64,000 nt of DNA. Origin: an uncultured Chthonomonadaceae bacterium. GTDB lineage: Bacteria > Armatimonadota > Chthonomonadetes > Chthonomonadales > Chthonomonadaceae. Where the stretch lies: assembly GCA_963817895.1 (NCBI GenBank), contig CAWFQB010000007.1:128001-192000 (forward strand), in the 5' to 3' direction. The notes beneath the pieces are model-generated. The model did not search any database, was not told the DNA's origin, and saw nothing but the letters and a program-made list of their open reading frames with translations. Positions 35,757 to 53,443 of the stretch are shown piece after piece; the stretch's first letter is position 1; every line of letters begins with the position of its first letter. A program made the translations under genes and the position numbers.

Positions 35757-36759
35757 TCCTTGTGGGGGCCTTGCTGGACGACAATGTTGGTATCAACAAG
35801 GGCGACAATATAGACTACGAGGGTCAGGATGATGCAGGCGATCTGCGTGAAGCCGATGGGGTGGCGCGACCCAAAGCCGTAGGGGGAACGCAGCAGAAAG
35901 AAACAGAGCGCGTCCAGACCGAGGAAAAACACGCCCTTGCCGATCTCACTGTTATGGAACTGCCCCAGTCCGGGCAGAATGAGGGACAGCAGCCGGGCGA
36001 ACCAGGGATTGCGGTCAACGGCTTCAGGGTCGGCCATGCCCCAGTTCTGCTGCAAAACGAGCAGTTCGCCGTACTTGCGCTCTGCCGAAGAGCGTTTCGG
36101 GTCGGCTTCCAGCGCGCGTTTGTAGGTGGCAAGCGCCTCATCCGTGCGGGCAACGCCCTGTAAAATATCGCCAAGCAGTTCCAGCGCGGCGGCGTCTTTG
36201 GGAACGAATTGAAGCGCTTCGCGGACTTTCACTTCGGCGTCGCGAAACTTCTCCTTGCGCCGCAGCATCGCTGCATCGCGCAACAGCGGTTCCGCCTGCA
36301 TGATCTCCTGAATGGAGGACTCGCGAAAGGGCGGCAGATCGAGCGACACTTCCCGAACGGCCTGCACCTGCGCGGCGGCTTTTTGCGCCATCAGTTCCGC
36401 CGCATACGCCTGCATCGAATCTCATTGAGGGCTTCGCGCTTTTAGCGTTTTTGGCGGGCAGTGGCGGCAGCGGCAGGGACGGCATGGCAGCGGTGACATT
36501 GGAAGCGCTTTTGGTAACGGCAACAGGCAGGCGCGTCCGCGTCGAATGTATGCGAATCGGCATTGAGCAGCTTTTGAACTTCCAGCGGCGACATGCCCAT
36601 GCGCCGCAAATCGTCCTCGATCTTTTTGCGCTTCGCCGCATCCGCCAGCAGTTTGTCCGCATCCCCGCCAATGGGCAGGGGATCGTTTTCGATTGTGGAT
36701 TGTGGACTGACGATTTTCGATTGAGGATTGCCGATTATCGATTGCGGTTCTGTATCCAT
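35753..36759 (-). CDS. TPR-containing membrane protein with TM2-like C-terminus (frameshifted in the 5' part)
   Basis: TPR (AALELLGDIL...ALATYKRALEADP), LSLILPGLGQF; start is approximate. Confidence 0.7.
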
Positions 36760-36835
36760 GTTTACTGTGCCGCCTTCTCTGCCGTTCATACCCTGATCTA
36801 CACCATACTACCCGACTACCTATCTTACTTCTGCC

Positions 36836-37396
36836 GTCAAGCGTTTCAAAGCGCGTGGGAATGGCGCGGACGTTGCGGGATTCGTCGGGCAGCAGTTCCA
36901 GCTGCAGGCGGGGCGCTGCGTTCCAGAACTCTTCCAGATTGTAAAAGTCGCGCTGTTCGGCAGCCATCAGGTGACATACAATGTCGCCGTAATCCAGCAG
37001 TATCCAGGTGGCTTCCTGATAGCCCTCCATGCGCGGCTTGCGGATGCCCTCTTCGCGCATCCGCTCATCAATGCGGTCGGCAATGGCGCGCAGTTGGATA
37101 CTGGATTTACCCGTGCAGATCAGAAAATAATCGGCAATGATGGTCAGGGTTCGCAGGTCGAGAACTTCAATGTCCTCGGCGCGTACCGCATCGGCGGCGG
37201 CGACCATCAGGCGCAATCTCTCCTCGGTATCCAGATTGGAAGCGGGACGCGGCGGGGCCGTGATTTCCTCTGCCTGCGGCTCATCTTCCTCCTCCATTTG
37301 CAGCAGCTCGTCCTCAATGTCGAAATCAGCGTCCTGCGCGTCCAGCGTGTCGGTATGGTCGGGCATGTTTGCGCCCCTTTCCTGTGTATCGCTCAT
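36836..37396 (-). CDS. rsfS: Ribosome silencing factor RsfS (3' end uncertain)
   Basis: AEDIEVLDL...IADYFLICTG.S..Q, WILLDYGDIV.H...R.FYNLE. Confidence 0.9.
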
Positions 37397-37422
37397 AAAG
37401 TACCTTCTAACGAAAATAGCCC

Positions 37423-38122
37423 TCAACCCCCGTCAGGTCTCCCAAGAAAGCCTGGGAGAAGGGGGACTGATTTATACGGAGTGTCCGCGAGAATAGCGGT
37501 TGTCTCGTTGCTGCGGATCGGCGGCGCGGTTCCGGCATATAGATTGTGTTTGCGAATGTATTCCACCACGCTGTCCGGCGTCATATAGCGCGCGGGCAAA
37601 CCCTGCGCCATGCGCTGCCGCATATCCGAAGACGAGATACCGATGGCGGTGGAACCCAGCAGCAGAATGCGCGACAGATAGGCGGCGGGCAAGCGCTCTT
37701 TCAGGCTGCGAACATCGAAGCCGGGACGGGTGGCGGCGATAAACGTTGCCAGTTGTATCACGTCTTCATGCCGCTTCCATGTAAGAATATCTGCAACCGC
37801 GTCTACGCCGCTGATGTAAAAAAGTTCCGCATCCGGGTGCTGCTGGCGAAGCTGCGTCAGCGTGTCTACGGTATAAGAGGGGCCATTGCGCGTAATCTCA
37901 ATGGGCGAACATCCGAACGCGCCGTTGGCATGCGTGGCGAGCAGGGTCATGTTGTAGCGATGGGTCGGCGCGGTAATCGCGTACCCTTTCTTATGCGGCG
38001 GCACGCCATTAGGCACGAACAACACCTTGTCCAGCCCGAAACGGCAGCGCGCCTCTTCCGCCACAAACAGATGCCCGAAATGAATCGGGATCGAATGTGC
38101 CGCCCATGATACCCAGTCGCAT
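37423..38122 (-). CDS. nadD: Nicotinate-nucleotide adenylyltransferase (frameshift near 38085)
   Basis: MRLGIMGGTFDP/IHFGHL, PPHK, SYTVDTL, ISSSDMR. Confidence 0.93.
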
Positions 38123-38123
38123 T

Positions 38124-39685
38124 TTAAGGATCAACCTGCAAAAATCGAACGCCCGTTTTGTCTATTTCAATACCCGCCCACGTTTCCGCGCTAATGGCAA
38201 TAGTTCGGAGGGATAAGGGGTAAGGGATAAGGGATAAGTTACTTGTTGTATGGAAGTTCTCCTCGCTTACCCCTTTTCCCTTACCCCTTATCCCTTCCTG
38301 TAAGTTTGCCAGCGGGATCGCCGCTTCCAGCAGGCGGTCTTGGTAGGCGAGGCGGACGCCGTCGGGCAGGGTTGTGCCGGGTTGGGCGGGGCGCAGATGC
38401 GCGACGTAGGCGCGGGCAGGAGTGTTGCCCTGCGCATCGAACGGGCGCAGATGCAGCGTGTAAGTTACGCGGCGGCTGACGGGTTGGCGGCAATCCAGGC
38501 GCGACGTACAGATAACGGCTGTCCCGGCAGGCATATAGGGCGCGAATGTCGCCGCTGCCCTGCAGGTCGCGCAGTACGTTGTCGCGCACGGGGTCGAGCA
38601 GGCAGGGCGGCAGGCTTTGCCAGTCCGCGTCGTTGGCGTCCACGCGAATAGCGTTGTCCGGCACGATGGGCAGGCGCGTGTCGGCAAGGTCGCCGTACAG
38701 TTCGGTGCTGCGGGCAAAAGCGTTCAGAAACCGGCCCATCATGGCTGTCTGACTGGGATACAGGCTGATGCTTTGCGCCTTGCGCCGGGTCTGTTCGGGC
38801 GTGAGCGGCAGTGTCAGCCAGCGCGTATCGGTTTGCGCCAGTTCTATGGGCGGCGTGAGCGGCGTGGCAGTTCCGGCTTTTTGCGGCAGGGGCCAGTCGC
38901 CCCGATGCACCAGATAGTATTCCAGCCGGGTCTGTTTCGCCCAACTCGCTTCCTGTGGATCGGCCTGCAACTCCTGCAGGGCGCGGGCCACAAACGCGGC
39001 AGTGGCGGCGTGGTCGGCATGGTCTTCGGCGGGATGCGTGACCGTAACAAGCGTTGGGTGAAACGCTCGCAATGTGGCTTTCACGTCCTCAAGAACGTTC
39101 TGGCCGCAGTACGCGGTTTTCGTATGAAACACGGTCGCATAGGGCGCATGGTCGCAGCGCGTAGTTGCGGACGTATACAGATTGGCGGGCGTCCAGTTGT
39201 CGTTCCACAGCGCCTGCAACCCCTGATCCGGGTAGCCCAAAAACTGAACATTGTCTGCGGTGACGCCCAGATTGGCAAGGGCGCGTAACGACTCCTGCTG
39301 GCGCGTATCCGCAAAGCGAACATAGTCCTGCGGCTCTACGCGCAATCGCCCCGTTTGCAATTCAACAGCGGTACGGAAGCCGTCGCCATTGGTCACGATC
39401 ATGGCCTGCGCTTTGCCCCCGGCCTGCAGGGTCTGCTGTATCAATCCCGCGCAGCCCAGCGTTTCATCGTCGCAATGAGGCGCGAAAACCATCAGGCGCG
39501 TGGCCGATGTGGGCGCAGGCAGAACGGGCAGGCGCAGGGCGGCATAATGCGGCATTGGCCTGATGCTGGCGCAGGGAAAAGGCAAGCCTCGCCGCGCCGA
39601 TATAAACGCCGGGCAGGGCAAGGCCAAGCCAGGCATAGCGGCGAAGCAGGCGAAAAGCGGTACGAAGGGCGAAACGCAAGGGCAA
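38124..39685 (-). CDS. PIG-L/LmbE family deacetylase with C-terminal extension (frameshifted)
   Basis: APHCDDE, TNGD, LGYPD, DHADH. Confidence 0.85.
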
Positions 39686-39766
39686 CGGTTCTCCTGTAAA
39701 ACGAAAAAAGGGATGTGGCATAGCAAAGGCCACGCCCACCCCTGTATCTAAATCACCACTGCAAAA

Positions 39767-39855
39767 CGGAGTGAAAGGGATTCGAACCCTTGATACGCTT
39801 TTGACGTATACACGATTTCCAGTCGTGCTCCTTCGACCAACTCGGACATCACTCC
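39767..39855 (-). tRNA. tRNA-Ser(GGA)
   Basis: GGAGTGA acceptor stem, CACGA-CTGGAAA-TCGTG anticodon arm, long variable arm, GGTTCGAATCC; CCA not encoded. Confidence 0.96.
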
Positions 39856-39868
39856 CTACTCACCTCTC

Positions 39869-39897
39869 ATTATAGCATGACAGACGGGTTGTGTCAA
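39869..39897 (-). promoter_or_regulatory. tRNA promoter
   Basis: TTGACA-N17-TATAAT with extended TG. Confidence 0.85.
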
Positions 39898-40032
39898 ATG
39901 TTGCGCAGGGATAAAATTTCATTTCATGCTCGCATCTGCTATTTAAGGAGCAGGGCGCAGAAAACTACGCCCCGCAAACTATTCTGAAAGAGTGTTGGAA
40001 GTGACAGCGATGCAAAATGCGCGTGGTAAATG

Positions 40033-41592
40033 TTACAGCGTGGCGGCGAAAGTGGCGAGAGGGATGAAATCGGCGTCGGGCGGGGCTTCCTGCGGGCCGA
40101 AGTGCGCTCCCCCAACCTCGCCAATCGCGCCGTCGCTTGTCGGTTCCAGCAGACGGACGCGCGCCGTTGTGCCCATCAGATGTGATCCGCCCGTAAACTG
40201 CACCCGGATATAGTTGCTCGTGTAACCGCTGAGGAGTTGCGTGTTGAGAGTTGAGAGTTGAGAGTCAGAAATCGCCAATGCGCGGTCTTTGTCGGCGTTG
40301 TCTTCCGCCTCCTCTTCTCCTTTTCTCCTTTTCTCCTCTTCTCCCCTCCCCTCTTTTCCCTCTACCAGCACTTCCAGTTCACGGCCTAAATGCCGCTGAA
40401 TGAACTGCTGTTGCGTGACGCGACAGGCAACGGCAAGTTCCTTGCTGCGGGCCTCTTTTTCCTCTTCGGCAACCTGCGCGTAACCGGCGGCGGGCGTGTT
40501 GGGGCGGGGCGAGTAGCGGAACAGATGGGCGCGGGCGTAGCCGACTTCGCGCGCCACTTTCAGCGTGTTTTCAAACGCGGCCCGGTCTTCGCCCGGAAAA
40601 CCCACCATGATGTCGCTCGTAATCGCCAGATCGGGAATACGCGCCTGCGCCGTCCGACAGCGTTCCAGATAGAAATCCTGATCGTAGGGCCGGTTCATCG
40701 CCTGCAAAATGCCCGTGTCGCCGCTTTGCAAGGGAATGTGCAGATGGCGGCACAGTTTCGGCTCACTTGCGAAAGCGTCCAGCAGGCGATCCGTTACCTG
40801 CGTGGGTTCGATGGACGACAGGCGGACGCGCTCGATACCCTCTACCTGCGCCAGCATCAACAACAAATCGGCAAGGTCGGGGCGGGCATACGTTTGATCC
40901 TTTGTCCAATGCTGCGACTGCGTGGTGACGCGCAAAACGTCCCCGTCCGGTTCTGGTAAACCCTGCGCGTAGGCCGTATTGCGGGCCGTGAAATCGGCTT
41001 CCTGTCCGTATGCGCCCACCAGTACGCCCGTAATCACCACTTCGCGATACCCCTGCCCCGCCAACCGCTCCACTTCCGCAACCACTTCTCCAACCGGGCG
41101 TGAACGCATCACTTTGCGGGTGTAGGGAATCGAGCAGAACGCGCAGAATACATTGCAGCCGTCCTGAACTTTAATCGTGGCGCGGGTGCGGCGTACAAAC
41201 GGGCGGGCATCCGGCAGGCGCGGATTACTGGCAATGTCGCGCTCCAGATGAGGATGGGCGCGAAGCACATGCGACAGGGTTTGCAGTTTCTGGTGGTTGG
41301 GAACCAGCAGCGTTGCCTCCTCGACTGTTTCCCCTTTGATCTGCGCCATCTCGCCGTAGCAGCCGGTCATTACGACAACCGCTTCGGGATTCTGGCGCGC
41401 CACTTTGCGCACCATCTGGCGGGACTTGCGCTCTGCCGCCTGCGTCACCGAACAGGTATTAATCACGTACACGTCAGCGGGCGTGTTGAACTCGGTTATG
41501 GTAAACCCACGCGCTTCAAAGTCGTCCAGTATGCGCTGAGTCTCATACTGGTTCACTTTGCAGCCAAGCGTGGTAAAAGCGGCGGTCGGCAC
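40033..41592 (-). CDS. mtaB: tRNA t6A37 methylthiotransferase MtaB
   Basis: LGCKVNQYET, NTCSVT, QDGCNVFCAFC, TRAM domain. Confidence 0.92.
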   Translation of the reverse strand: MPTAAFTTLGCKVNQYETQRILDDFEARGFTITEFNTPADVYVINTCSVTQAAERKSRQMVRKVARQNPEAVVVMTGCYGEMAQIKGETVEEATLLVPNHQKLQTLSHVLRAHPHLERDIASNPRLPDARPFVRRTRATIKVQDGCNVFCAFCSIPYTRKVMRSRPVGEVVAEVERLAGQGYREVVITGVLVGAYGQEADFTARNTAYAQGLPEPDGDVLRVTTQSQHWTKDQTYARPDLADLLLMLAQVEGIERVRLSSIEPTQVTDRLLDAFASEPKLCRHLHIPLQSGDTGILQAMNRPYDQDFYLERCRTAQARIPDLAITSDIMVGFPGEDRAAFENTLKVAREVGYARAHLFRYSPRPNTPAAGYAQVAEEEKEARSKELAVACRVTQQQFIQRHLGRELEVLVEGKEGRGEEEKRRKGEEEAEDNADKDRALAISDSQLSTLNTQLLSGYTSNYIRVQFTGGSHLMGTTARVRLLEPTSDGAIGEVGGAHFGPQEAPPDADFIPLATFAATL

Positions 41593-41618
41593 GGGCGGTA
41601 TCCTCGGTATTCAGGTAT

Positions 41619-41709
41619 TACGGTGATAATCTTCATCGCGCGGTTTTTAGAATCCATCAGCAAACTTGTCAAATGTTCCTTCTTCAAGTCGCGCATCTCC
41701 GGCATCAGG
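41619..41709 (-). pseudogene. radC: Diverged internal radC fragment (LMPEMRDLKKEHLTSLLMDSKNRAMKIITV)
   Basis: Aligns to 42861-42949; most differences are synonymous. Confidence 0.85.
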
Positions 41710-41715
41710 CAAGAT

Positions 41716-41934
41716 TTACTTTGCTATGACGGGTTCCTGCACAGCCTCAAATTGGATGCCATGATCGCCGGGATAGGGCTGGCTGTGTGAGTTCTCGCCC
41801 ATCCAGATGGTTAGCGGTATGCCGTCGGGGAAAGCAGCGCAAGCGCGTTTCACATTTGGATTCCAATGCCGGCAGAAAGCGCAAACTTCGCTAAAAGCTG
41901 GAATTTCGTGATCCCTGTCAATTGTTATGGGCAT
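41716..41934 (-). CDS. Small CxxCxH...C metal-binding protein (CAAFPDGIP...GDHGIQFE)
   Basis: 72-aa ORF with GGAGGAG RBS; the motif resembles small proteins seen beside phage minor-head genes (recollection). Confidence 0.7.
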
Positions 41935-41939
41935 GACGC

Positions 41940-42488
41940 TTACTCCTCCACTCTATTGTAACGCAGCCCAACCAATTCTGCAACCTGTACCCATATTTCA
42001 TGATCAAGCCGGGCAGATGCTTCTTGTGGACTGATGGCGTGGCGCAATGCCGCGCTGTATAATTCGGCCTTGACTTCCTGGTAAACCAGATCGTAGAGCG
42101 GGCGTATCTCCTGATTCCAGGTAAGTTCCGTCCAGCCCAATGGCGATGGCCGCATAGAATTAGGTGAACTTCGGACCAACAGCGCGGATTTCCGCCATTT
42201 CCGCGTGGCAGGCCAGAAGAATATCTTCCGGCGAAAACGAATTGCCGACATGACGGGCATCAGTTGGATCGTAGTTCCATCCTCGCGGATGATTATGCGT
42301 GAAAGTGATATCGGAAATTGTTCTCAGTATATCTACTTCTGCGTCCGTAAACTCAATTTCGTAATCTTCATCCGGCTTTGAACTTTTCTGTAAAATCACA
42401 TTGCCATTGCGGTCATAAGCGATCCCGACCTCGGAACGGAGCAGGCGCAGTTCCCGCTCTTTTTCCCGCACAATGTCAATCAATGCCA
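41940..42488 (-). CDS. JAB/MPN-like domain protein (E...THNHP...SFSPED), frameshift near 42160
   Basis: JAB metal motif HxH...S..D; removing one base joins the two ORFs as KFTYSMRP. Confidence 0.7.
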
Positions 42489-42610
42489 TCTTTTCCTCAC
42501 AACTGCCATATCTGAATGACCTGGCTGAAAACAAGCCTGTGTCTTTAGCCTTCAATGGCAATTCGCGTTCATTCGCGTGTATTCGCGGCTAAACACTCCT
42601 CTCATTCTTC

Positions 42611-43080
42611 TCAAATCACGCCGCGCTCTTTGAGTGAAATCCAGCGGTTGTCGCCGATAACGATGTGATCCAGCAGGTCAATGCCGATAAGCTGGCCCGC
42701 CTCGTACAAACGTTGCGTAATGCGCTTGTCTTCCGGGCTGGGCGTGGGGTCGCCGCTCGGATGGTTGTGCGCGATGATGAGAGACGCGGAACTGGCGAGG
42801 ATCGCATCCTTGAAAACTTCGCGGGGATGGACGAGGCTGCTATCCAGAATCCCCACGCTGACCGTGATAATCTTCATCACGCGGTTTTTAGAATCCATCA
42901 GCAGTGATTTTAGATGTTCCTTCTTCAAGTCGCGCATTTCCGGCATCAGCAGGTTCGCCACATCCTGCGGGCTGCGGATGCACGGGCGTTCCTCGTTGCT
43001 CAGAGCGGACAGGCGCTTGCCCAGTTCCACAGCGGCGATAATCTCCACCGCTTTCACCGGACCGATTCCTTTGACAGAGG
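42611..43080 (-). pseudogene. radC: radC 3' part (HhH end + JAB domain), interrupted by the prophage
   Basis: SVKGIGPVKA...VHPREVF...AHNHPSGDPTPSPED...LLDHIVIG. The N-terminal part is missing and there is an in-frame stop just upstream. Confidence 0.92.
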
Positions 43081-43103
43081 GGCATGTACTGTACCGGTCA
43101 AAG
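43069..43103. other. Putative att junction
   Basis: CTTTGAC-N21-GTCAAAG inverted repeat straddling the radC breakpoint. Confidence 0.6.
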
Positions 43104-43347
43104 CATTAGCACACACTTGTGGAAATGGGTTGGTTCAAGTCTGCGCCTCCTACTTGCGCGCTTACATTTCAATTCAAGTAGAACCAAAACACGTTTAGAT
43201 AGCCCAAGTTGCTACCTAGATTTAGCAATCTCGAAGGTTCAAGCGCAAAGTGCTACATTTGACAAGTCGCTATGCCAAAAGTGGTTAGAGGTAGCATCTT
43301 GGGTAATCAATGTTATCAAGGGGAGATCACTGTCGTAGGTGGTGAAA

Positions 43348-44455
43348 TCAGCCGATAAGTCTTAAGGTGACATCATCCTGCGTGTAAGTGCGTTGCGGCG
43401 CAGGCTCGGCAGGCTTGGGCAAGTACGCTTGTACTGTCGGCATGATAACCAACAGATTTTGTGTGGACAGATGCAGACTTCGCGCAAAGTCTGCGGGCGA
43501 CTCCTGTTTGGCAGCCATGCTGTCAAAAGCCATCTTGTGCAGCAGCGAGTGTTCGCGTGGGATCGCAACCGGCTCTTTCATACGCCAGCCATTCATGGAA
43601 AGCTGTTTGAATGCCTTCTCGTAGTACCAGTCGTCAAACAGTCCCAAATCGCGCCCGCGCCGAATCATAGCCTGAATAGACACCTTCCAACGTGCTCTTG
43701 AGACGCAGATACTCATTAAATGCCGGAAGCCGTGGCGACTTGTAACGGAACTGTTCGGCAGGCATCAAGAAAGCGGCGGCAAAGGCGTTGGCCTCGTCTT
43801 CAATTTGCGGGCCATCCACTTCGACTGCATGGCGATGCAACACCAAATGTCCAAGTTCGTGCGCAGCATCAAAGCGCGCTCGGTCGCCTGCCTGCGTATG
43901 GACGTTGAGAAGCACATAAGGAATATCGTTGCGCCACAGGCAGAAAGCGTCCAGATTGGAAATCGGTTCGCCCGTCCAGTACACTTCCACGCCCTTACTT
44001 TCCAGCAGATGCACCATATTGTGAATGGGGCCTAATCCTAACTGCCAGGCGTCGCGCAACAGCTGCGCGGCCTGGGTGGGCTTCTCCTGCGAGAGATCGG
44101 GCAGGTTTTTGACTGGCATTTGAAAACGCTGCCCCAGACGCGGGGATATAATTTCGGTAGCAAGCGCGCCTGTAGCACGGGCTTTGCCCCGATGCGCAGC
44201 TTTGAGGGAGTAGCGCGAACGGAAACTCACGACCTGCTCATTGGGCAGCTCTATCGGCCCGGCAGAAAAGAAGGTTTCGGCAAAGTCCAGACGAAACGCC
44301 ATGCGGCGCACTATTTCAGGCGGTGGTATACGCTTGCCTTCCTCATAGTACGTGATACTTTGCGCCGACAACTCCAGTTCTTCGGCAAGCGTTTTGCGGT
44401 GAAGCCCCGCGTATTCACGCGCCAGCGTCAAGCGCTTCCCATAAAAGACGGACAC
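43348..44455 (-). CDS. XRE HTH + ImmA/IrrE metallopeptidase (RmrA-like), frameshift near 43715
   Basis: RLTLARE...LAEEL...YYEEG; RFDAAHELGH; EDEANAFAAAFLMP; WKVSIQAMIRR. Confidence 0.88.
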
Positions 44456-44467
44456 ACGATTTTCCTC

Positions 44468-45190
44468 CTATCCTTTGGTTCCGGTTTGGTCGTCCTGTTC
44501 CGGTTGTCGGTTTCCTTCACTCCCCTCATGAGGCTTCTCCGGGAGTATAAACGTGCTAGGCGTACTGTCGGGCTGATGTTCCTGCGAAACAGGAGCTCGG
44601 TACGCGCTCATGTCTATCGCGCCGAGGAACTCAATGTCGCAGCAGTAATACTCGCCTTTGCGGATGATGCGCGTAGGAACAACGGCATAAATGCGGAGTT
44701 GGTTCTGTTTTGTGCGCTGACTAACGATCATCACATTGAGCGCGCGAATCAGCGGCGGCTGTGCCCCGTGCAAATCTTCCAGAGGTATTTGCGTCTGTCC
44801 CTCCGGGTCCCAAGAGTGATTTGCTAGAATGAACCGCTTGGTGACAATCCCCTTCCTCTCTCCCAGAAAGACATGTTTTCCCTTGATCTCACCCGTAACA
44901 ACGATGAAGGTCGTTTGAATGTCATTTTTAGGTGGCGCAAGCAGGCGGGGTTGATTCATTTCGGGCTTGTAGAGATACCCTAAATCGTAGGTTTCCTGTG
45001 CCAGATATTGACAACGATAACTCCAGCTATCGAAGCCAGGCGCAGTAGGGGGATAGAATTTGGTTTCTGCGCGCAACAAACCGATGTAATCGCCGTGCGG
45101 CATGGCTCTGCGAATGGCGCTCAACAAAAGCGGATCGTCACGAACCATGTCCAGTGGAAGCGGTACATCTTCAGGAAGCGCTAACTGCAT
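44468..45190 (-). CDS. Hypothetical protein, putative toxin partner (RmrT-like position)
   Basis: Immediately upstream of and co-oriented with XRE-ImmA; own promoter TTGATT-N17-TATACT near 45223-45251. Confidence 0.5.
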   Translation of the reverse strand: MQLALPEDVPLPLDMVRDDPLLLSAIRRAMPHGDYIGLLRAETKFYPPTAPGFDSWSYRCQYLAQETYDLGYLYKPEMNQPRLLAPPKNDIQTTFIVVTGEIKGKHVFLGERKGIVTKRFILANHSWDPEGQTQIPLEDLHGAQPPLIRALNVMIVSQRTKQNQLRIYAVVPTRIIRKGEYYCCDIEFLGAIDMSAYRAPVSQEHQPDSTPSTFILPEKPHEGSEGNRQPEQDDQTGTKG

Positions 45191-45298
45191 AAGGCGTGTT
45201 CTCCAGTCGAGTATTTTCACACAGTATACAGAAAAAGTTTGAAAAAATCAACAGTGGTATATTTGTCTACGTTTGCAGGATGTGTAAGTTCCCATACC

Positions 45299-45511
45299 TT
45301 ACTTCTCAAAGAGATCGCCAAACGCATTGAATTCTTTCGCCGCACCCACAGGACGCAGCCATTGTCGGGCGGCGTCCTTGCCGTAAATGCTTTGCCAGCC
45401 ATCCGGCCAGGTGACATGCGCCTGACCGCCGGGGGTAACATGCGTGACGCGCCCCTGGGTACGCTCCCGTTCCGCGTCCTGTACCAGATTGCCGACATAG
45501 GGCCGGTTCAC
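45299..45511 (-). CDS. Small SH3-like phage protein
   Basis: 70 aa; GRVTHV...AHVTWPDG. Confidence 0.5.
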   Translation of the reverse strand: MNRPYVGNLVQDAERERTQGRVTHVTPGGQAHVTWPDGWQSIYGKDAARQWLRPVGAAKEFNAFGDLFEK

Positions 45512-45795
45512 GCTTGTACCTCCTGTGGAAGCGGGTAGTCGGGAAAGTCGGCTTCACGCTCCAGCCGGCTCACGCCGACCGCGTACTGACGGCCATCCTC
45601 ATCGAAGCGTACCAACGCCTGCCCGTTGCTCTCGCTTTGCGTTACAATGCCGCGCTTCCCATCCAGTTTCGGATCTGGGGTTGTCAGTATCACGCGGGTT
45701 CCCTCGGTCAGCATGTTCATCTCCTTTTTAGCCGCTTCCTCTTCACGCAGGAACTGCTCAATCCACTCGTCTAAATCGCCTGTCTCATCAAACAT
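45508..45795 (-). CDS. Small KOW/SH3-like phage protein
   Basis: GTRVIL...GKRGIV...VRFDE; overlaps the next start. Confidence 0.55.
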   Translation of the reverse strand: MFDETGDLDEWIEQFLREEEAAKKEMNMLTEGTRVILTTPDPKLDGKRGIVTQSESNGQALVRFDEDGRQYAVGVSRLEREADFPDYPLPQEVQA

Positions 45796-45842
45796 GAAAA
45801 CCTCTTGCCGGGGAAACCGCCCCGGCTCGGTGTTCGGTCAAG

Positions 45843-46208
45843 TTACGCGGCGAAGCGGTTGTCGCGTAGGCCGCAGGCCAGTTCCAACAGGCGCAGGTCG
45901 CTGTTGACCTGCTGTACGCGCAATCGCGCCGTTTCGATTTGAAACTTCAGCACCGCCTTGCGATTTTCAAGCCGCTGCACGTCGCGCAGTTCCGCGCTTG
46001 TCAGGGAGGCTAATTTCGCTTCCCGCTGCTGCTCGTTTTTGCCGAGGTCAGCCGGTTCAATTGTCAGAATGAACTGCGTCCGGGCGTTCGTCAGCGCGGT
46101 TTGCGCTTCCACGAGGTCAGCCTCCAGCGTCGCCGCTTCGCACAGGAGGGTCGTCAGGCTGTTGTACGCGCTATCGTTTTCCATAGCCACCTCATTCACG
46201 GTTTTCAT
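45843..46208 (-). CDS. Coiled-coil hypothetical protein
   Basis: Helical; LGKNEQQREA. Confidence 0.55.
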   Translation of the reverse strand: MKTVNEVAMENDSAYNSLTTLLCEAATLEADLVEAQTALTNARTQFILTIEPADLGKNEQQREAKLASLTSAELRDVQRLENRKAVLKFQIETARLRVQQVNSDLRLLELACGLRDNRFAA

Positions 46209-46251
46209 CAGAGTTCCTTTCCCGCGTGTCGGATGCGCGGCCCCCACTTTG

Positions 46252-46485
46252 TCAGCCCCGGTAACGCTCTTCAATGCAAGGGAAAAACGCCTCTGCCTGC
46301 TGCTGCGTCAACTTGTCGCCGCGCTCGGCCACGAGGGTTTCCGCCTCCTCTTTCGGCATGTCCTCGGACGTTGCGCCGATGTAGGCAGCCCAGTCGCACC
46401 CCTCATGGATAACCGCCAGAATGGTGGCGCGTTGACCGCGCATGTGGAAGTGCAGCGGGATCGTCGTTTTGTCGTGTTTTGCCAA
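46252..46485 (-). CDS. Small hypothetical protein
   Basis: DWAAYIG...VAERGDKL...AEAFFP; AGGAG RBS. Confidence 0.55.
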   Translation of the reverse strand: MAKHDKTTIPLHFHMRGQRATILAVIHEGCDWAAYIGATSEDMPKEEAETLVAERGDKLTQQQAEAFFPCIEERYRG

Positions 46486-46494
46486 TTCTAACTC

Positions 46495-46773
46495 CTATTC
46501 TCTCGCAAACATTTGAACTGCTTCCGCGTCGGAAAGGGGTTCGTCTCGCTGCATCAGGGCTTGCATTTCGGGCAGTGTGTGCCAGGGTTTCGCGCCGACA
46601 ATCGCGCATAAGAGGAAGTGGCCCCTGCCGGGAAATCGCGCTTCAAGGGATTGTTCCGCTGCGGCATACCCGCGTCGGCACTCCTCATTCGTGAAGTTGT
46701 GTCGCCTGTCGTCATACCCTGCTTTGAACTTGCCTTTGAATTTGTACTTGCCTTCCTGCGCGCCTTCCTGCAT
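46495..46773 (-). CDS. Small hypothetical protein
   Basis: First gene after operator 1; GKFKAG...RHNFTNEECRRG. Confidence 0.55.
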   Translation of the reverse strand: MQEGAQEGKYKFKGKFKAGYDDRRHNFTNEECRRGYAAAEQSLEARFPGRGHFLLCAIVGAKPWHTLPEMQALMQRDEPLSDAEAVQMFARE

Positions 46774-46807
46774 CTGCTTGCCCTTCCCTGCGTGTTATAC
46801 TTATATA

Positions 46808-46825
46808 CTACCTAACGCTAGGTAG
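46808..46825. promoter_or_regulatory. Operator 1, CTACCTA-ACGC-TAGGTAG, inside a leftward promoter
   Basis: 7-bp inverted repeat; TTCCTG-N17-TAGTAT on the minus strand. Confidence 0.75.
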
Positions 46826-46892
46826 AACAGGAAAAGAAAAATAGGGAATTTCAGATTATTTTGAAATTCCCTTTCGCGTTCAGGTGTTCAGG

Positions 46893-47156
46893 TTAGCGGT
46901 TGCGGCTCAGGTATTCGGGTTCGGGCGCGCCATGAAAGCGGGGCGGCATCGGGCAGGTACAGGCGTCGCCGTGATTGCGGCAGTTCGGGCAGAACCCGTG
47001 TTCATCCTCTTCCGGCTGAACGTAGCCGCCTTTGGGCCATGACAAGTTCATTCCGGCACAGGTGACAACAATCGGCAGCGGGGCGTCCAGCGCGAGGGCG
47101 GCTGTAACAAAGCGACGGCGGGGGCGAATCGTAACCATTGTTTTTGTTCCTTCCAT
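46893..47156 (-). CDS. Small Cys-rich protein
   Basis: CPNC...CTC. Confidence 0.45.
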   Translation of the reverse strand: MEGTKTMVTIRPRRRFVTAALALDAPLPIVVTCAGMNLSWPKGGYVQPEEDEHGFCPNCRNHGDACTCPMPPRFHGAPEPEYLSRNR

Positions 47157-47257
47157 TGGGTAAAATGGAACCGTTCAGCTCGCAAGGTTTGAACGGTTCC
47201 CGGTTTTCGGGAGGGGCTTAGGGGATGTTATCAGCATCATCCTAAGCCCTCTTTTGT

Positions 47258-47632
47258 TTACAGCAGGTAGTCAACCCCTGCCGTACATTCGGCCTCTTCG
47301 ATGAGTTTGTAGGCCGCTTCAAACTGCGCGATGGCCGCTGTTTCCTTTTGGATTTCTTCCCATGCCAGCGTATGTTTGCAGTAATCGTTGTGCTTTGCGA
47401 AGTCGGGGCAGCTACAACCATTCTTGATTTCAGGAGCGGAGAAGTTTTCGTGAATCCAGTAGGAGGGAGCATCCTGCGCGTCGGTGGGTTTGCGGACGGC
47501 CACCAATTTTACCGGGCTGTCGGGAAGCGTGCATTCGATGAATTGGTAGCCCTCTTTGAGAAGAGACTGGGCTTTTGTCCACGAGTTGGCGAGTCTGCGA
47601 ATGGCGGTCAGGTTGGTGGGTTGGCTGTTCAT
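47258..47632 (-). CDS. SWIM zinc-finger protein
   Basis: CSCPDF...CKH. Confidence 0.8.
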   Translation of the reverse strand: MNSQPTNLTAIRRLANSWTKAQSLLKEGYQFIECTLPDSPVKLVAVRKPTDAQDAPSYWIHENFSAPEIKNGCSCPDFAKHNDYCKHTLAWEEIQKETAAIAQFEAAYKLIEEAECTAGVDYLL

Positions 47633-47683
47633 TTCGGTTCCTTTTCGATGCAGAAGGTGTCTGCGCGTTGTTATACTCTCATA

Positions 47684-47774
47684 CTACCTAGCGTTAGGTA
47701 GAACCGGAAAGCGACGCGGAAAATAAATAAATATCTTTTTCCGCTTGACACTACCTAGCGATTAGTTGTATACT
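47684..47774. promoter_or_regulatory. Divergent promoters with operators 2 and 3
   Basis: CTACCTA-GCGT-TAGGTAG at 47684-47701; TTGACA-ctacctagcgattagttg-TATACT at 47745-47774. Confidence 0.78.
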
Positions 47775-47798
47775 TGCGAGACACAGGAGGGAATCAAG

Positions 47799-48043
47799 AT
47801 GAGCCGTGAAGCAGGGCAGGAAATGCAGAACCCGGATGAGGAAACGCGCCGTAATGCCGCCCGCGTTCTGGGCAGCATCAAACGGAGAAACGCGCCGCCG
47901 CCAGTCGGGAGAACGGCAAACAGGGTGGGGTCCGCAATCCTACGGACGACTACCGCGCGAAACTCAGTGCCGGCCAACAAGCCCGCCGCGAACGGGAGCG
48001 CCTCGCCAAACTGGGAACGGGAACGGAGGAGCCTGCAAAATGA
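47799..48043 (+). CDS. Small basic putative DNA-binding regulator (LGSIKTEKRAAASRENGKQGG), frameshift near 47880
   Basis: AGGAGG RBS; adding one A in the A-run restores an approximately 81-aa ORF whose TGA overlaps the next ATG (ATGA). Confidence 0.6.
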
Positions 48044-48306
48044 AGATGTACGCGAACTTGAACGACTACGCCGACCACATGCGCCAGGAAACGGGTTCGA
48101 TCCTCGCCGGTCTGTGCCGGGAACTGGGGCCGGAGCATGACATCACGCTGCGCGTCGCCGGTCTCTGCACCGAAGCGGCCACCGTGTTAAATCAGCGCCA
48201 GATGCAGCAGGAGAGCGGGGACGCGGAACGGTACAACCTAACGGCCCTGGTGGTGGACCCGGAGACGGCGAGCAACTCGGAGACGGGGTGGGAACAGGAG
48301 GACTAG
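48040..48306 (+). CDS. Small acidic hypothetical protein
   Basis: GGAGGAG RBS; ATGA coupling; 88 aa. Confidence 0.6.
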   Translation: MKMYANLNDYADHMRQETGSILAGLCRELGPEHDITLRVAGLCTEAATVLNQRQMQQESGDAERYNLTALVVDPETASNSETGWEQED

Positions 48307-48310
48307 CCTT

Positions 48311-48511
48311 ATGGGGATGTATTCGGTCGTATGGCGGCGTTTGTTGGGCGTGGTCAGTTTGTCTATCGGCCTGCTCCTGGGAATTCTCATTTTGAAGGCG
48401 GAGTTGTTGGGAGCGCAGGGACACCGAGATTTTCGCGCGCTGATTATGCCGGTACTGCTGATCGCAGTCGGCGCGAACTGGATGCGCGGCAAGACGGTAC
48501 ATTTGAAATGA
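48311..48511 (+). CDS. Small two-TM membrane protein
   Basis: Two hydrophobic segments; AGGAGG RBS. Confidence 0.6.
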   Translation: MGMYSVVWRRLLGVVSLSIGLLLGILILKAELLGAQGHRDFRALIMPVLLIAVGANWMRGKTVHLK

Positions 48512-48627
48512 AACCCGAACAACCCCCAAGGCCGGAGGAAGCGCCGCTCCTGTGTCCTATCTGCCTGCACCCGATTCCCTACAGCAAGAAGTTGCAGTGT
48601 CGGCGTTGCGGCTACATGCCGGGTTGA
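48508..48627 (+). CDS. Mini zinc-ribbon protein (39 aa)
   Basis: CPIC...CRRCGY; ATGA overlap. Confidence 0.5.
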   Translation: MKPEQPPRPEEAPLLCPICLHPIPYSKKLQCRRCGYMPG

Positions 48628-48672
48628 AGCAATGGCGAAGGCTGCTAGTCTGGCAGCAGGAGTAGACTACGG

Positions 48673-49332
48673 ATGCATCCCACGAACGCCGAACTTTCCC
48701 GCCATTTGCGCCCGCGCCGGCCTTCGCGCTGGTACGGACTTGCCGCGCTGACGGTTATAACAGGCTTTTGCTCCGTCGTACCCCGCGCCGTATCCTTTGC
48801 GGCGGACGGACGGTTGAACGCCTTGCGCCCTGTGCCGTCGGATGCAAGCCTGCGCCACTCCCTGCTACTTGTCGCGCGCCCGAAAGTGGAGGCGCTGCGC
48901 CACAAACTCAGCAAACGCGGGGCTGTCGGCGAAAGCAATGGCGTGTTTTTTCGCGCTCCTGAATGTCAGGTCGGCAGTATTGCGGGCAGCCGGATCACGC
49001 GCAACGGCCCCACCATTGCGGGACTGGTGACGGTTTCCTGCGTCTGGAAGTCTACAGCAGAGCGGACGTTTCGGGATCAGGATGAGGCGGAACAGGCGGA
49101 GTTGACTGAGCGCGAACCGGGCCGGTTGCGTCTGACGTTCGCGTGGACAGAGGGCAAGTGGCTGTACAAGGGCGCAAAGAAAGAGATGAGGGACTTGTAC
49201 CGCCCCGACAACCCGGCGACATTTTGCGTCTGCATGTTTCCCATTGGCGATGTAGAGCTGGATACCTACAAAGGAGATCATCATGTCACTCAATGCTGGT
49301 TTTGTGAAAAGAAATCGGGAAATCACAATTGA
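48673..49332 (+). CDS. Hypothetical protein
   Basis: 219-aa ORF with AGGAG RBS. Confidence 0.45.
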   Translation: MHPTNAELSRHLRPRRPSRWYGLAALTVITGFCSVVPRAVSFAADGRLNALRPVPSDASLRHSLLLVARPKVEALRHKLSKRGAVGESNGVFFRAPECQVGSIAGSRITRNGPTIAGLVTVSCVWKSTAERTFRDQDEAEQAELTEREPGRLRLTFAWTEGKWLYKGAKKEMRDLYRPDNPATFCVCMFPIGDVELDTYKGDHHVTQCWFCEKKSGNHN

Positions 49333-50326
49333 AGAGTGTAATACAATGTTTAAGTGCGGGAAATGAAGACGTCTCGACCTTTGTTCAGTTCCCCCTCAAC
49401 ATCAGACGAAATATGAGCCTGATAGGTCTCGATCCACGCTGTGGGGACTGTGAATCCTGTTACGCTCGCATGGCTGCAGCACCGACGGCTCTCCAAGTGC
49501 GCCGTGAGGTATGCGGGCTTTTCTTCGGCTCTTGTTTTTCTATGGACCTGATGCGTCTGCGAAGGCGTACTGCGTAAATCGTCGCTGTTATCGCGCGCAT
49601 TTGGGCTAGCAAGCCGGACGCCCTGCTCTCCAGCGCGTGAAAGCCAGCCATTCCTACAAAACCAACGTCGGCGACATCCTGAACGCCTGCCCATGCCCGT
49701 CTATTGGAAATGGCTCCAAGTTGAGGAGTACCGCGAAGGGCATCTGCGGTTCCTGCTCTCCATCGGCGATACGTCGCGTGTATGCCCCGACACAGAAGAG
49801 GACATCGTGAGAGATCCTGCGCTTTTTTAATCATAATCTGCGCCATGCTCTTATTGGCTTTAATGATATGGTTGCCGTTACATGAGGCAGGAGTCAATGG
49901 ACGTCTTGCGATAGACCAAGCGGAAATCGAAGGCGGCTGCGCCTGGTGAGTTTTATTCTTTTTTGGTAGCCGGTCGCAACTTTTAGTATATACTGCAAAA
50001 AACATGGAGAAAGGAAAGATGAAGCGATGTGGCATCACAGTTATTGTTACGGATGCCGCTGAAGGCGGATCGACGTGGATGTCAAGGAGTGACCAGTACA
50101 CTCATTGACGTGGACATGGCGGACTTGTGCTGGTTCTTGGAGACGGGGCTGCGGATGGATCCGACTCGGTATTGATGAATAATCCGCATACATGCGACAC
50201 AGTAGAATTCCTTGCGCTACTCTTCGTGTACTCGTGTGCTTCCCTCTCTTCCCTTCTCGTGTACACCTCTCTACACTGAAAAAAATACCTGAGTTTTCTT
50301 TCCTGTTTCACCGACAACAAGGGTGA

Positions 50327-50346
50327 TTTGGCATGAATCTTGCAAT
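50327..50346 (+). promoter_or_regulatory. Sigma-54 (-24/-12) promoter motif, copy 1
   Basis: TTTGGCATGAATCTTGCAAT. Confidence 0.6.
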
Positions 50347-50400
50347 AGCCAAGTTTATAACCCCATTTTAGAGGTAGCCCCGCCTCAGTTGGAAGTTCCG

Positions 50401-52362
50401 ATGCCCACGACCAAAAATGAACGTCTCACCGAGCAGATCGTAAGAAACATACTGCGACAACTTGGATATTACGACATAGTAAATAACATTCTTGTGGAGG
50501 AGCAGAAGAGTACAATTGAGGCAGTCAAAAGACTCCTCAAGAGTGCCAGCAAGTCGGGCAAAGGGGGAACCGGAGCGCCTGAGTTCATCATCAGCTCTCT
50601 CACAGCACCTGACTTCTTAATCATTATCGAATGCAAGGCCAGTACGGGGGATCAAGCAAGTCTACTCTACAAGAGTTCTTCACTGTTGGACGTGGATGCA
50701 GAAGAACAAGAGACGCCTGAGCAACAGGCCAAACGCATTCAACGCTATGCCGTAGATGGGGCATTACACTACGCACAGCAGTTGTCGAAAGCGTTCAATG
50801 TCATCGCCATTGCCATCAGCGGCCAAACAGAAGATGAAGTAATCGTTTCCACTTTCCTCCATCCTAAAGGCGCTTACAGCCCCAAAAAACTGCTGACCAA
50901 AGACCAGCAACCTATTAATTGTCTTATCTCGTGGTCAGATTATATAGCCCATGGCACCTATGACCCGACTGTTCAGAAACTGCGGTTCGATGAACTTATG
51001 GCGTTTTCAAGAGAACTCCATGATTTCATGCGCAATTATGCGAAATTGACGGAAAGTGAAAAACCGCTTGTCGTCAGTGGGACGTTGATTGCACTGCGCC
51101 ACAAACCCTTTGGCCATTCGTTTGAACAGAACTCCCCCGAGGATCTGCAAAGCGCATGGATGCACGTTATTCGCACGGAGATTCAGAAGGCTCACATACC
51201 CAACTCAAAGAAAAGGGAGAGTATGGTGCAGCCCTATTCCAGCATTGCCGTACACCCTGAGCTTGGAAAATCCACAAAGGCGTATCCAAAAGGGATATTA
51301 CATGAACTAATTTCTAGGCTTAATGAAAAGGTTTACCCCTTTATCAGTATTTACCATGACTTTGATGTGGTGGGACAGTTTTACGGTGAATTCCTGAAAT
51401 ATACCGGTGGGGACAAGAAGGCTTTAGGGATTGTCCTCACTCCACGTCATATTACGGAATTGTTTGCCTTACTTGCGAATGTCAACAAAGATAGTACCGT
51501 TCTAGATATATGTGCGGGAACAGGAGGATTTCTCATTTCCGCCATGATGCAGATGATGCGTACAGCCCAGACGAAAGAGGAAGAAGAGCGCATCAAGTCT
51601 GAAGGACTCGTAGGGGTAGAGCAGCAGCCAAATATGTTTGCTCTGGCCGCATCGAATATGATTTTACGTGGTGATGGGAAAGCCAATCTCTACCAGGGCG
51701 ACTGCTTTGATGATGAGATCATTGCACAAATCAAAAAACACCGATGCGACGTTGGATTGTTGAATCCTCCCTTTTCCCAGGGCGAGTCAAGCCTACACGA
51801 ATTATATTTCATCAAGCAACTACTGACTTGCCTTGAAAAAGGTGGCACAGGCGTCGTTATAGTTCCCATGTCCTGTGCGATCAATCGTCATCCTGCCAAG
51901 GCAGAGCTTCTTAAAGAACATACTTTAGAGGCCGTAATGTCTATGCCGGATGATCTGTTTTACCCGGTGGGTACAGTAACTTGCATCATGGTTTTTACGG
52001 CTAAAATTCCTCACGCTCACAGCAAACGCAAAACATGGTTTGGCTATTGGAAACGCGATGGTTTTCTAAAGACAAAGCATCGAGGCCGTATTGATGTCTC
52101 AGAGAACTGGGCTACTTTGCGTGACAAATGGGTTGACCGATTTCGGAATCGCGAGGTGCATGCGGGCGAAAGTGTCATGCGAATGGTGACAGCGGATGAT
52201 GAATGGTGTGCTGAAGCCTATATGGAAACGGACTACGGCACCATTACTCAGGGCGAGTTCGAGAAAGCAGTGAGGAACTACGCGATATACCGCTTACTCG
52301 GTACGTCCCCTCATTCATTGGATAATGAAGAGATCGTAGATGAGGTTATGCAGGATGCCTAA
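50401..52362 (+). CDS. Type IIB (BcgI-like) R-M alpha subunit: nuclease + N6 MTase
   Basis: PEFII...IECKA, ALGIVLTPRHITELF, DICAGTGGFL, NPPF, EWCAEAY. Confidence 0.85.
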   Translation: MPTTKNERLTEQIVRNILRQLGYYDIVNNILVEEQKSTIEAVKRLLKSASKSGKGGTGAPEFIISSLTAPDFLIIIECKASTGDQASLLYKSSSLLDVDAEEQETPEQQAKRIQRYAVDGALHYAQQLSKAFNVIAIAISGQTEDEVIVSTFLHPKGAYSPKKLLTKDQQPINCLISWSDYIAHGTYDPTVQKLRFDELMAFSRELHDFMRNYAKLTESEKPLVVSGTLIALRHKPFGHSFEQNSPEDLQSAWMHVIRTEIQKAHIPNSKKRESMVQPYSSIAVHPELGKSTKAYPKGILHELISRLNEKVYPFISIYHDFDVVGQFYGEFLKYTGGDKKALGIVLTPRHITELFALLANVNKDSTVLDICAGTGGFLISAMMQMMRTAQTKEEEERIKSEGLVGVEQQPNMFALAASNMILRGDGKANLYQGDCFDDEIIAQIKKHRCDVGLLNPPFSQGESSLHELYFIKQLLTCLEKGGTGVVIVPMSCAINRHPAKAELLKEHTLEAVMSMPDDLFYPVGTVTCIMVFTAKIPHAHSKRKTWFGYWKRDGFLKTKHRGRIDVSENWATLRDKWVDRFRNREVHAGESVMRMVTADDEWCAEAYMETDYGTITQGEFEKAVRNYAIYRLLGTSPHSLDNEEIVDEVMQDA

Positions 52363-53443
52363 AGTAGAAGACCTCTTTGAAGTAAAGTATGGCGTCAATT
52401 TAGAGTTGAATGCTCTGAAAAGAGATGAAAATGGGATCAACTTCGTTTCTCGCACAGACCGTAATAACGGTGTCTCTGCAAAAGTCGCTCTCATCAACTC
52501 CGTGTCGCCTATACCAACAGGAACGATTTCCGTAGCAGGAGGCGGCTCAGTAATGGCAAGCTTCCTGCAATTGGAGCCTTACTATTGCGGGCGCGATCTA
52601 TATTACCTTTGTCCAAAATCGGCTATGACCGATGCGGTTAAATTGTACTATTGTTCTTGCCTACGGGCAAACCGGTATCGCTTCAACTATGGCCGTCAAG
52701 CAAACCGCACACTTCGAGAAATTCTGATTCCTGGACTTGATGAGATTCCAGAGTGGGTAGAAATGCAAAGAATTGATGTGTTTCACGGAAAAGAAGTATC
52801 GGCAATTCCGCAGAAACACATTCCCCTGAATACAACCTCCTGGCGAATATTTCTGATTTCGGATCTGTTTGAGTTGAGGAAAGGCACACGTCTTACAAAA
52901 GCAGACATGATCCCGGGCGGTACACCTTTCATTGGAGCCATAGACAGCAAAAACGGCATTAGTGGCTTTGTAGGACAACGCCCTCTTCATCCCGGCAATA
53001 CGTTGACCGTAAGTTACAACGGAAGTGTCGCCGAAGCATTTTATCAACCTCAACCCTATCGCTGCTCGGATGATGTGAATGTTCTCTATCCGAAATTTCA
53101 ACTAAATGCGGCTATTGGTTTATTCATTGCTACGGTAATTCGCCATGAGAAATACCGTTTCAATTACGGGCGAAAGTGGCATCTGGAGCGTATGGAAGCG
53201 TCTGAAATTCGCCTTCCTGCGACTTCCGCAGGTGTCCCTGACTTTGAATTCATGGAAGCCTACATCAAGACATTGCCATTTAGTGCCGAGTTGATGAACG
53301 TGACTGAGGAAGAAAAAGCACTTCATTACAATCCGCCAACCCTAGAGAAACAGCCAAGTAGGGAGGGGAAGGAAGTTCCGTGGGAACACATCCAACCGGA
53401 ACTTCCATATACCGTTGAAAATGTCAACACAGTAAGTCATTAG
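52355..53443 (+). CDS. Type IIB R-M specificity (beta) subunit with two TRDs
   Basis: Two repeated halves ending RFNYGRQ and RFNYGRK; overlaps the alpha subunit stop. Confidence 0.85.
   Translation: MPKVEDLFEVKYGVNLELNALKRDENGINFVSRTDRNNGVSAKVALINSVSPIPTGTISVAGGGSVMASFLQLEPYYCGRDLYYLCPKSAMTDAVKLYYCSCLRANRYRFNYGRQANRTLREILIPGLDEIPEWVEMQRIDVFHGKEVSAIPQKHIPLNTTSWRIFLISDLFELRKGTRLTKADMIPGGTPFIGAIDSKNGISGFVGQRPLHPGNTLTVSYNGSVAEAFYQPQPYRCSDDVNVLYPKFQLNAAIGLFIATVIRHEKYRFNYGRKWHLERMEASEIRLPATSAGVPDFEFMEAYIKTLPFSAELMNVTEEEKALHYNPPTLEKQPSREGKEVPWEHIQPELPYTVENVNTVSH

Follow-up and report, generated by a model that had tools for sequence, protein, structure and literature searches.

A radC remnant behind a predicted toxin-antidote cassette in a Chthonomonadaceae genome: a probable scar of one-sided homologous recombination

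The radC locus and its cassette

Why does a genome carry, behind the 3' part of its radC gene and two small genes, a second short piece of the interior of the same gene? The question was raised by the 64,000-nt stretch of DNA analyzed here (the window), which belongs to the genome of an uncultured Chthonomonadaceae bacterium (G000). G001 is a genome of the same genus, other G-numbers are further genomes, L-numbers are DNA loci, and X1 and X2 are sequencing runs. The radC end, the two-gene cassette and the radC remnant together are probably a scar left when DNA of a close relative recombined homologously on one side only.

A sequence-only reading of the window had described a copy of the radC interior of approximately 90 bp. 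The copy was confirmed as a direct repeat of 89 nt, 41620-41708 versus 42861-42949, in which 79 of the 89 positions are identical (89%). The repeat spacing is 1241, the pair is the longest repeat listed for 36000-50000, and the gap of 1153 nt between the copies is taken up by the remainder of radC together with two cargo ORFs. The gene order given for the minus strand was also correct: radC 3' part, repeat arm, JAB-like gene, CxxC gene, radC remnant, mtaB. The radC 3' part with its JAB domain (42611-43075, minus strand; PF04002, E 2e-45; NF000642) contains the intact repeat copy at 42861-42949 and displayed amino acid identities of 97% to G002 and 89% to G001. The remnant (LMPEMRD...KIIT; 41620-41708, minus strand) begins 7 nt past the CxxC stop and covers the stretch from -339 to 250 nt before the radC stop; the rest of the old tail is gone and a piece of the mtaB leader repeat follows. 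The gene mtaB (40033-41592, minus strand), encoding a tRNA methylthiotransferase, matched TIGR01579 above the cut-off.

An arm of a genome-wide tandem-repeat (REP-like) family is located in the radC-JAB spacer (42561-42592). The family has many copies in the genome (86 exact-pattern matches), and the arm is absent from the corresponding spacer of G001. Short tandem-repeat arms and hairpins were also observed between and inside genes at 36686-36741, 38209-38296 and 40240-40360, one of which puts a low-complexity insert in mtaB. ORF and profile searches gave no recombinase or integrase match between the two radC copies, and the three PF07508 matches of the genome lie on other contigs. The repeat is longer than 30 bp, it is a single-copy pair in the genome scan and not a dispersed one, and the insert is shorter than 20 kb and has no mobility gene.

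That this layout is an assembly chimera is scarcely credible. The assembly is indel-prone, with frame changes in 7 of 45 orthologue checks, but a 205-nt contig from X1, which may be the source sample, corresponds to 41531-41735 with zero differences across the CxxC-remnant-mtaB junction. Furthermore, the 10 differences in 89 nt are codon-aware and G001 displays the same layout.

The first cargo gene (41940-42489, minus strand) is a stand-alone gene with the JAB motif E...HxH...S..D, encodes a predicted toxin domain and is 80% identical at the nucleotide level to an intact 182-aa gene of G001. The motif is that described for JAB/MPN+ proteins (PMC3239186). Compared with G001 and two X2 contigs, the gene has one extra base near 42158-42160, which may indicate a pseudogene or, given the frame-changed orthologue checks, an assembly error. 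The second cargo gene (41716-41934, minus strand; phrog_33375) is a small CxxC..H gene of 72 aa, a predicted immunity or antitoxin partner.

The JAB protein of G001 carries the motif as E...HNHP...SFS..D, and E20, H65, H67, S84/S86 and D89 were invariant in 12 homologues. Its predicted model (pLDDT 93) was nearest, at modest Z, to JAMM1 (Z 6.9, rmsd 3.7, 111 aligned) and RadC (Z 6.6, rmsd 3.4, 101 aligned), all matches being below Z 8, and the best Foldseek E was 0.025. The JAB gene had no Pfam match, DUF4329 included, and PADLOC returned no match for JAB or CxxC. Among 101 JAB homologue loci, many of them near-identical loci of gut Bacteroidales, a long open frame is located upstream in 76, the gene is stand-alone in 18, and seven are cut by a contig end; a CxxC gene follows the JAB match in 86. 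In locus L074, the JAB domain forms the C-terminus of a phage head protein whose gene follows those of terminase and portal, and a small CxxC gene comes next, while the JAB genes of the window and of G001 are stand-alone (182 aa) and have no N-terminal MuF domain. The domain was found in 6 of 42 genomes of the family at unrelated sites, mostly with CxxC behind. Judged from these sequences, JAB and CxxC would be a freed, phage-derived toxin-antidote pair, and we regard the stand-alone pair as an unnamed toxin-antidote candidate. A metagenome scan with one protein gave no match, and an alignment scan gave distant homologues only, none of them at radC. Three more CxxC genes without a JAB partner were observed in G000 (C2:698972, C3:478306 and C5:76421), the C3 copy lying behind a 217-aa gene of unknown function.

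Scars at radC in relatives and at other genes

A total of 68 radC loci were surveyed, comprising the 30 best matches, 17 loci picked for second hits, 20 from further kin and one second copy. The arrangement of radC, about 1 kb of cargo and a radC remnant was detected in eight of them (G000, G001, G033, G373, G353, G307, G365 and G369), a count from a biased sample with flanks of 0.2-4 kb and hence not a frequency; three scars were among the first 30 loci. Neither a weak 35-nt match in G222 nor a 23-nt tandem in G029 was included in this count. Five cargo types were distinguished: JAB+CxxC, a pair of 69 and 195 aa, a small gene with HNH, TacA+GNAT, and an opposite-strand pair. HNH was a frequent cargo, and cargo types were also located behind radC without a remnant in G021, G126 and G255. 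No cassette was present behind the radC of G002, the genome with 97% amino acid identity to the window's radC.

The remnants started at different distances from the radC stop even behind the same cargo. Behind JAB+CxxC they began at -339 nt in G000 and -174 in G001, and behind the small gene with HNH at -45 (G373), -172 (G365) and -255 (G307). Relative to the stop of the last cargo gene, the junctions fell at -5 to +21 nt in all seven co-directional radC cases, and in G373 the stop codon of HNH is supplied by the remnant. In G001, a whole radC is followed by JAB, CxxC, a different remnant (IIAHNHP to the stop) and a GH95 gene, and an X2 contig carries a junction of the G001 type. In G369, new cargo is located between radC and a 31-nt radC tail, which is followed by an HNH cassette and spacer that are found behind intact radC in G126. 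This order indicates that the G369 remnant is the old radC end.

Several smaller observations were made at these loci. Near the end of the G001 remnant (L031 9030-9080), a 15-nt unit has expanded, giving four copies in tandem. Just past the radC stop in L170 and L250 (G365, G184), the spacer contains degenerate copies of the radC end of 12-15 nt, which suggest older, layered scars. In G032, a different contig carries a radC tail (L035 6376-6576) that is nearest to the second radC copy of that genome and follows type I restriction-like genes; this may be a larger insert of the scar kind seen here.

A comparison of radC-mtaB loci had been proposed as a check. The adjacency is not inherited: it was absent from 29 radC loci of relatives (flanks up to 1.5 kb) and from five mtaB loci. 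Among 67 other genomes of the class, none matched the radC-mtaB junction DNA as a whole, and neither an empty radC-mtaB site nor a close relative was found.

The sequence-only reading had explained the locus by an island whose integration near LMPEMRD restored radC with the island's allele and left the resident 3' end. The part that concerns a displaced resident end is likely to stand; the site-specific island is not supported. The insert has no integrase, and fixed integration near LMPEMRD is contradicted by different remnant starts behind the same cargo. Elements restoring the gene they enter are known, and this very radC holds a prophage. Tn554-family elements are known to target radC (bioRxiv 2020.09.30.320143). 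Nevertheless, an island that restored radC and then lost its integrase has a very low probability, since the insert holds only two ORFs and no recombinase, and such an island would have to accommodate variable remnant starts, lineage-specific remnants and unrelated genes with the same scar.

The prophage-like DNA (43076-64000) cuts radC just before VKGIG and extends beyond the window as far as the end of the contig. The radC homology of G001 and G002 stops at 43075, which puts the break at 43075/43076, and tape-measure and Dit matches were located just beyond the window. No radC 5' half was found by PF20582 or tblastn in the 81%-complete assembly, nor was the other prophage end, and at this end of the prophage, in which the contig ends, no integrase was seen. 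The prophage DNA (43076-64000, and L043) encodes a type IIG restriction-methyltransferase with a specificity gene (50323-53443), two DNA methyltransferases and an HTH-IrrE gene, and one further gene is presumably PEP-CTERM-like. Three related palindromic operator-like sites (46793-46834, 47669-47710 and 47751-47772) overlap promoter-like hexamers between divergent prophage genes. The earlier view that the scar is independent of the prophage was borne out: in G001 the cassette and its remnant sit behind a whole radC, therefore the two events were independent.

The same scar was detected at other genes. Comparison of the G000 genome with itself yielded 124 local direct repeats. Of these, 56 were single-copy, for which the extra copy lay downstream of a gene in 27 cases and upstream in four, 15 had no called gene, seven were paralogous and three intragenic. 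In a controlled scan of 3164 genes, from which the radC fragment was excluded by its short length, 20 tails were copied downstream and five heads upstream, compared with one and zero in the control geometries. The junction lay within 45 nt of the cargo stop in 10 of 14 genome cases versus 4% at random, the genome-wide gene calls being our own, so that some of the cargo stops could belong to truncated ORFs. Among the 98 of 130 ORFs between repeats (40 regions) that were compared with Pfam, PIN occurred in five regions, methyltransferases or restriction enzymes in three, DUF4365 in two, and PemK, XisI and acyltransferases were also found. Transposases or an integrase were present in 4 of the 40 regions, and most ORFs had no Pfam family.

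At an MFS gene, G002 provides an empty site, in which the bases after the stop match the G000 remnant and not the intact copy, indicating that the remnant is the old gene end there. This was the one empty site among six scars other than radC at which one was sought; at the remaining five the neighbours were non-syntenic. A kdpD-like gene of G002 (L230 3065-4061) has its own HNH-like pair on the opposite strand and an 89-nt tail remnant; in G000 the same gene is followed by a PIN pair together with a remnant.

Origin of the two copies

Most differences between the copies had been read as synonymous, and this was the case in 5 of the 7 changed codons among 29 compared (intact radC/remnant: GAA/GAG, CTA/TTG, TCA/AGT, CTG/TTG and ACG/ACC), the two non-synonymous changes being AAA/ACA and GTG/GCG. 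The claim that the copies had been functional alleles before they met was strengthened by the seven gene-remnant pairs, in which the share of non-synonymous codons was 12 of 44 (0.27), compared with 0.55-0.66 expected from duplication and neutral decay. In none of the six settings did any of the 4000 simulations attain this share, and for G000 alone P was 0.002-0.03. The pooled pN/pS was 0.14 for the seven radC pairs; for 27 genome pairs it was 0.21. The mostly synonymous differences between gene and remnant thus indicate that the copies were two working alleles.

Each remnant was nearest to the radC of its own genome or of near kin. The G000 remnant matched its own radC at 79 of 89 positions versus 72 for G002, and the G001 remnant at 144 of 152 versus at most 122. 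Remnant pairings were 99/95 for G001, 92/86 for G033 and identical for G307, while the remnant of G365 paired with G353/G255 (95/85). These relationships suggest repeated, lineage-specific events.

A tandem duplication of the radC tail with its cassette within the genome, followed by deletion of the second cassette and neutral decay of the remnant, would also place each remnant nearest to its own genome's radC. Moreover, the JAB cassette and radC have diverged equally between G000 and G001 (80% and 78%), so that their linkage may be old. However, this course of events predicts the high non-synonymous share given above, requires two events per locus and leaves the empty site of G002 unexplained, and we consider it very unlikely.

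It was asked which copy is closer to the vertically inherited radC. The intact copy matched G002 at 76 of 89 positions and the remnant at 72; only a Ser codon points to the remnant as the resident (AGT in the remnant, AGC in the congeners, TCA in the intact copy). The phylogenetic breakpoint expected near 42950 was not seen in 60-nt windows against G002 and G001, nor was a breakpoint seen at the radC of G365. A dip at about 42920-42800 was rejected as a breakpoint, since it was also present between G002 and G001 and thus reflects a variable part of the gene. The G000 remnant is likely the displaced resident radC allele; that the remnant is the old gene end was demonstrated at other loci (radC of G369 and the MFS gene).

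The cargo itself might have driven the insertion. JAB and HNH proteins are predicted nucleases, and a break made by them could be repaired with duplication of the gene end, a course that has been proposed for restriction-modification units. The two copies would then be identical at first, the working copy being later replaced by alleles from the population. Double-strand breakage has been suggested as a common property by Furuta et al. (PMC2853133), HNH is frequent as radC cargo, and the G307 copies, 99.6% identical, fit a copied target equally well. Still, the same scar is found with non-nuclease cargo (TacA+GNAT; acyltransferases), and the two-allele signal would need an extra replacement step at most loci. 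We regard this origin as unlikely, and the data favor recombination with DNA of relatives over breaks made by the cargo.

Recombination with relatives' DNA could have proceeded as follows. The donor DNA would have carried a radC 3' end and the cassette, and its radC part would have paired with the resident radC. The far end, trimmed just past the last cargo stop, would have been joined illegitimately to a point within radC, through HFIR-like joining or through a single crossover after recircularisation, giving donor tail, cargo and resident tail in this order. Under a toxin-antidote logic only whole cassettes would be retained, and poor synteny behind gene ends may often deny a second crossover. 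A later deletion or rearrangement would have joined the remnant to the mtaB leader repeat and removed the rest of the old tail with the mtaB promoter, and separately the prophage would have inserted at VKGIG. Both ComEC and DprA were found in G000, DprA in two frames.

The resident 3' end had been thought to have eroded later. The native mtaB leader stub (41593-41619, minus strand), a piece of 8-mer repeat with a ribosome-binding site, matches the repeat array and ribosome-binding site of the G002 mtaB leader. A promoter TTGACG...TAAACT/TAGAAT precedes mtaB in four of five relatives and is missing in G000. Since the remnant is joined to the leader 8-mer repeat and the native promoter is lost, simple erosion does not describe this end, and a deletion or rearrangement would have cut the old tail.

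A weak candidate for a replacement mtaB promoter, TTGACA-17 nt-TAAAAA, was read from the sequence within the remnant (41644-41672, minus strand). Two changed codons (CTN AAA to TTG ACA) build its perfect -35 box; two of the ten repeat differences form TTGACA and so may postdate the event; the -10 hexamer lacks the final T. A promoter scanner called none in the remnant, and hexamers starting with TA but lacking the final T were hardly enriched upstream of genes (13 of 520 versus 109 of 5901). The remnant may, weakly, serve as the mtaB promoter now. A wider proposal is that the displaced tail was kept as this promoter, and that conserved Armatimonadota gene ends like that of radC are integrase-free, stacking landing pads that spread toxin-antidote pairs by gene-tail swaps, a MuF-type JAB toxin freed from a phage among them; this is tentative and rather doubtful. 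A 13-nt word over the cluster of changes in the remnant occurs only at 41664-41676 and, on the other strand, at 43255-43267, where the prophage end carries a dispersed inverted-repeat element that contains it. The match was noted post hoc and is left as chance or short-patch templating.

Relation to known systems

Toxin-antitoxin modules without mobility genes are scattered through bacterial chromosomes, and their route of arrival has mostly been assumed. The data make this route testable, with repeated independent arrivals at one gene end, variable junctions, divergence at the level of alleles, a stacked case and an empty site. Judged from listings, with subscription papers outside the scope, no paper was found on such a scar with toxin-antitoxin cargo or in Armatimonadota. 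The scar type is already in print, however, and the locus does not represent a new system.

Insertion with long target duplication was described by Furuta, Abe & Kobayashi (2010, PMC2853133), who cite Nobusato et al. (2000). As in their cases, the insert is small and without mobility genes, and the direct repeats are long, variable and imperfect; their repeats often span the stop codon, the gene being kept intact, and most of their hosts are naturally competent. In contrast to their restriction-modification cargo, the cargo here is toxin-antitoxin-like and has no R/M homologues. The copies also behave as two alleles, one gene end was hit repeatedly across the phylum, and the remnant was later truncated. 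One homologous end together with one illegitimate join, with recircularised trimmed DNA, gave anchor duplications of 109-950 bp in 56 of 60 clones (PMC3240628). Those came from laboratory conjugation of E. coli with a plasmid, whereas the present case is known from its end product alone, and classical HFIR deletes rather than duplicates (PMC3240628).

For the cargo, locus L074 resembles the MuF polymorphic toxins (PMC5576092) and Tox-JAB-1/-2 (PMC3482391), in that the JAB domain ends a head protein and a small CxxC gene lies downstream. The JAB gene of the window differs from MuF toxins (PMC5576092) in being stand-alone without a MuF domain, and the term 'JAB' does not occur in the main text of the MuF paper (PMC5576092).

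Among toxins, the nearest parallel is found in Vibrio, in which T6SS effector-immunity modules are displaced sequentially (PMC5361080). There, too, the incoming module anchors on a conserved upstream gene, the old 3' end is pushed downstream, and modules are stacked as in G369. Unlike in Vibrio (PMC5361080), where the anchor is the carrier gene of the toxin, the anchor here is a conserved gene unrelated to the toxin, and the cargo forms an operon of its own, for which no secretion carrier is visible.
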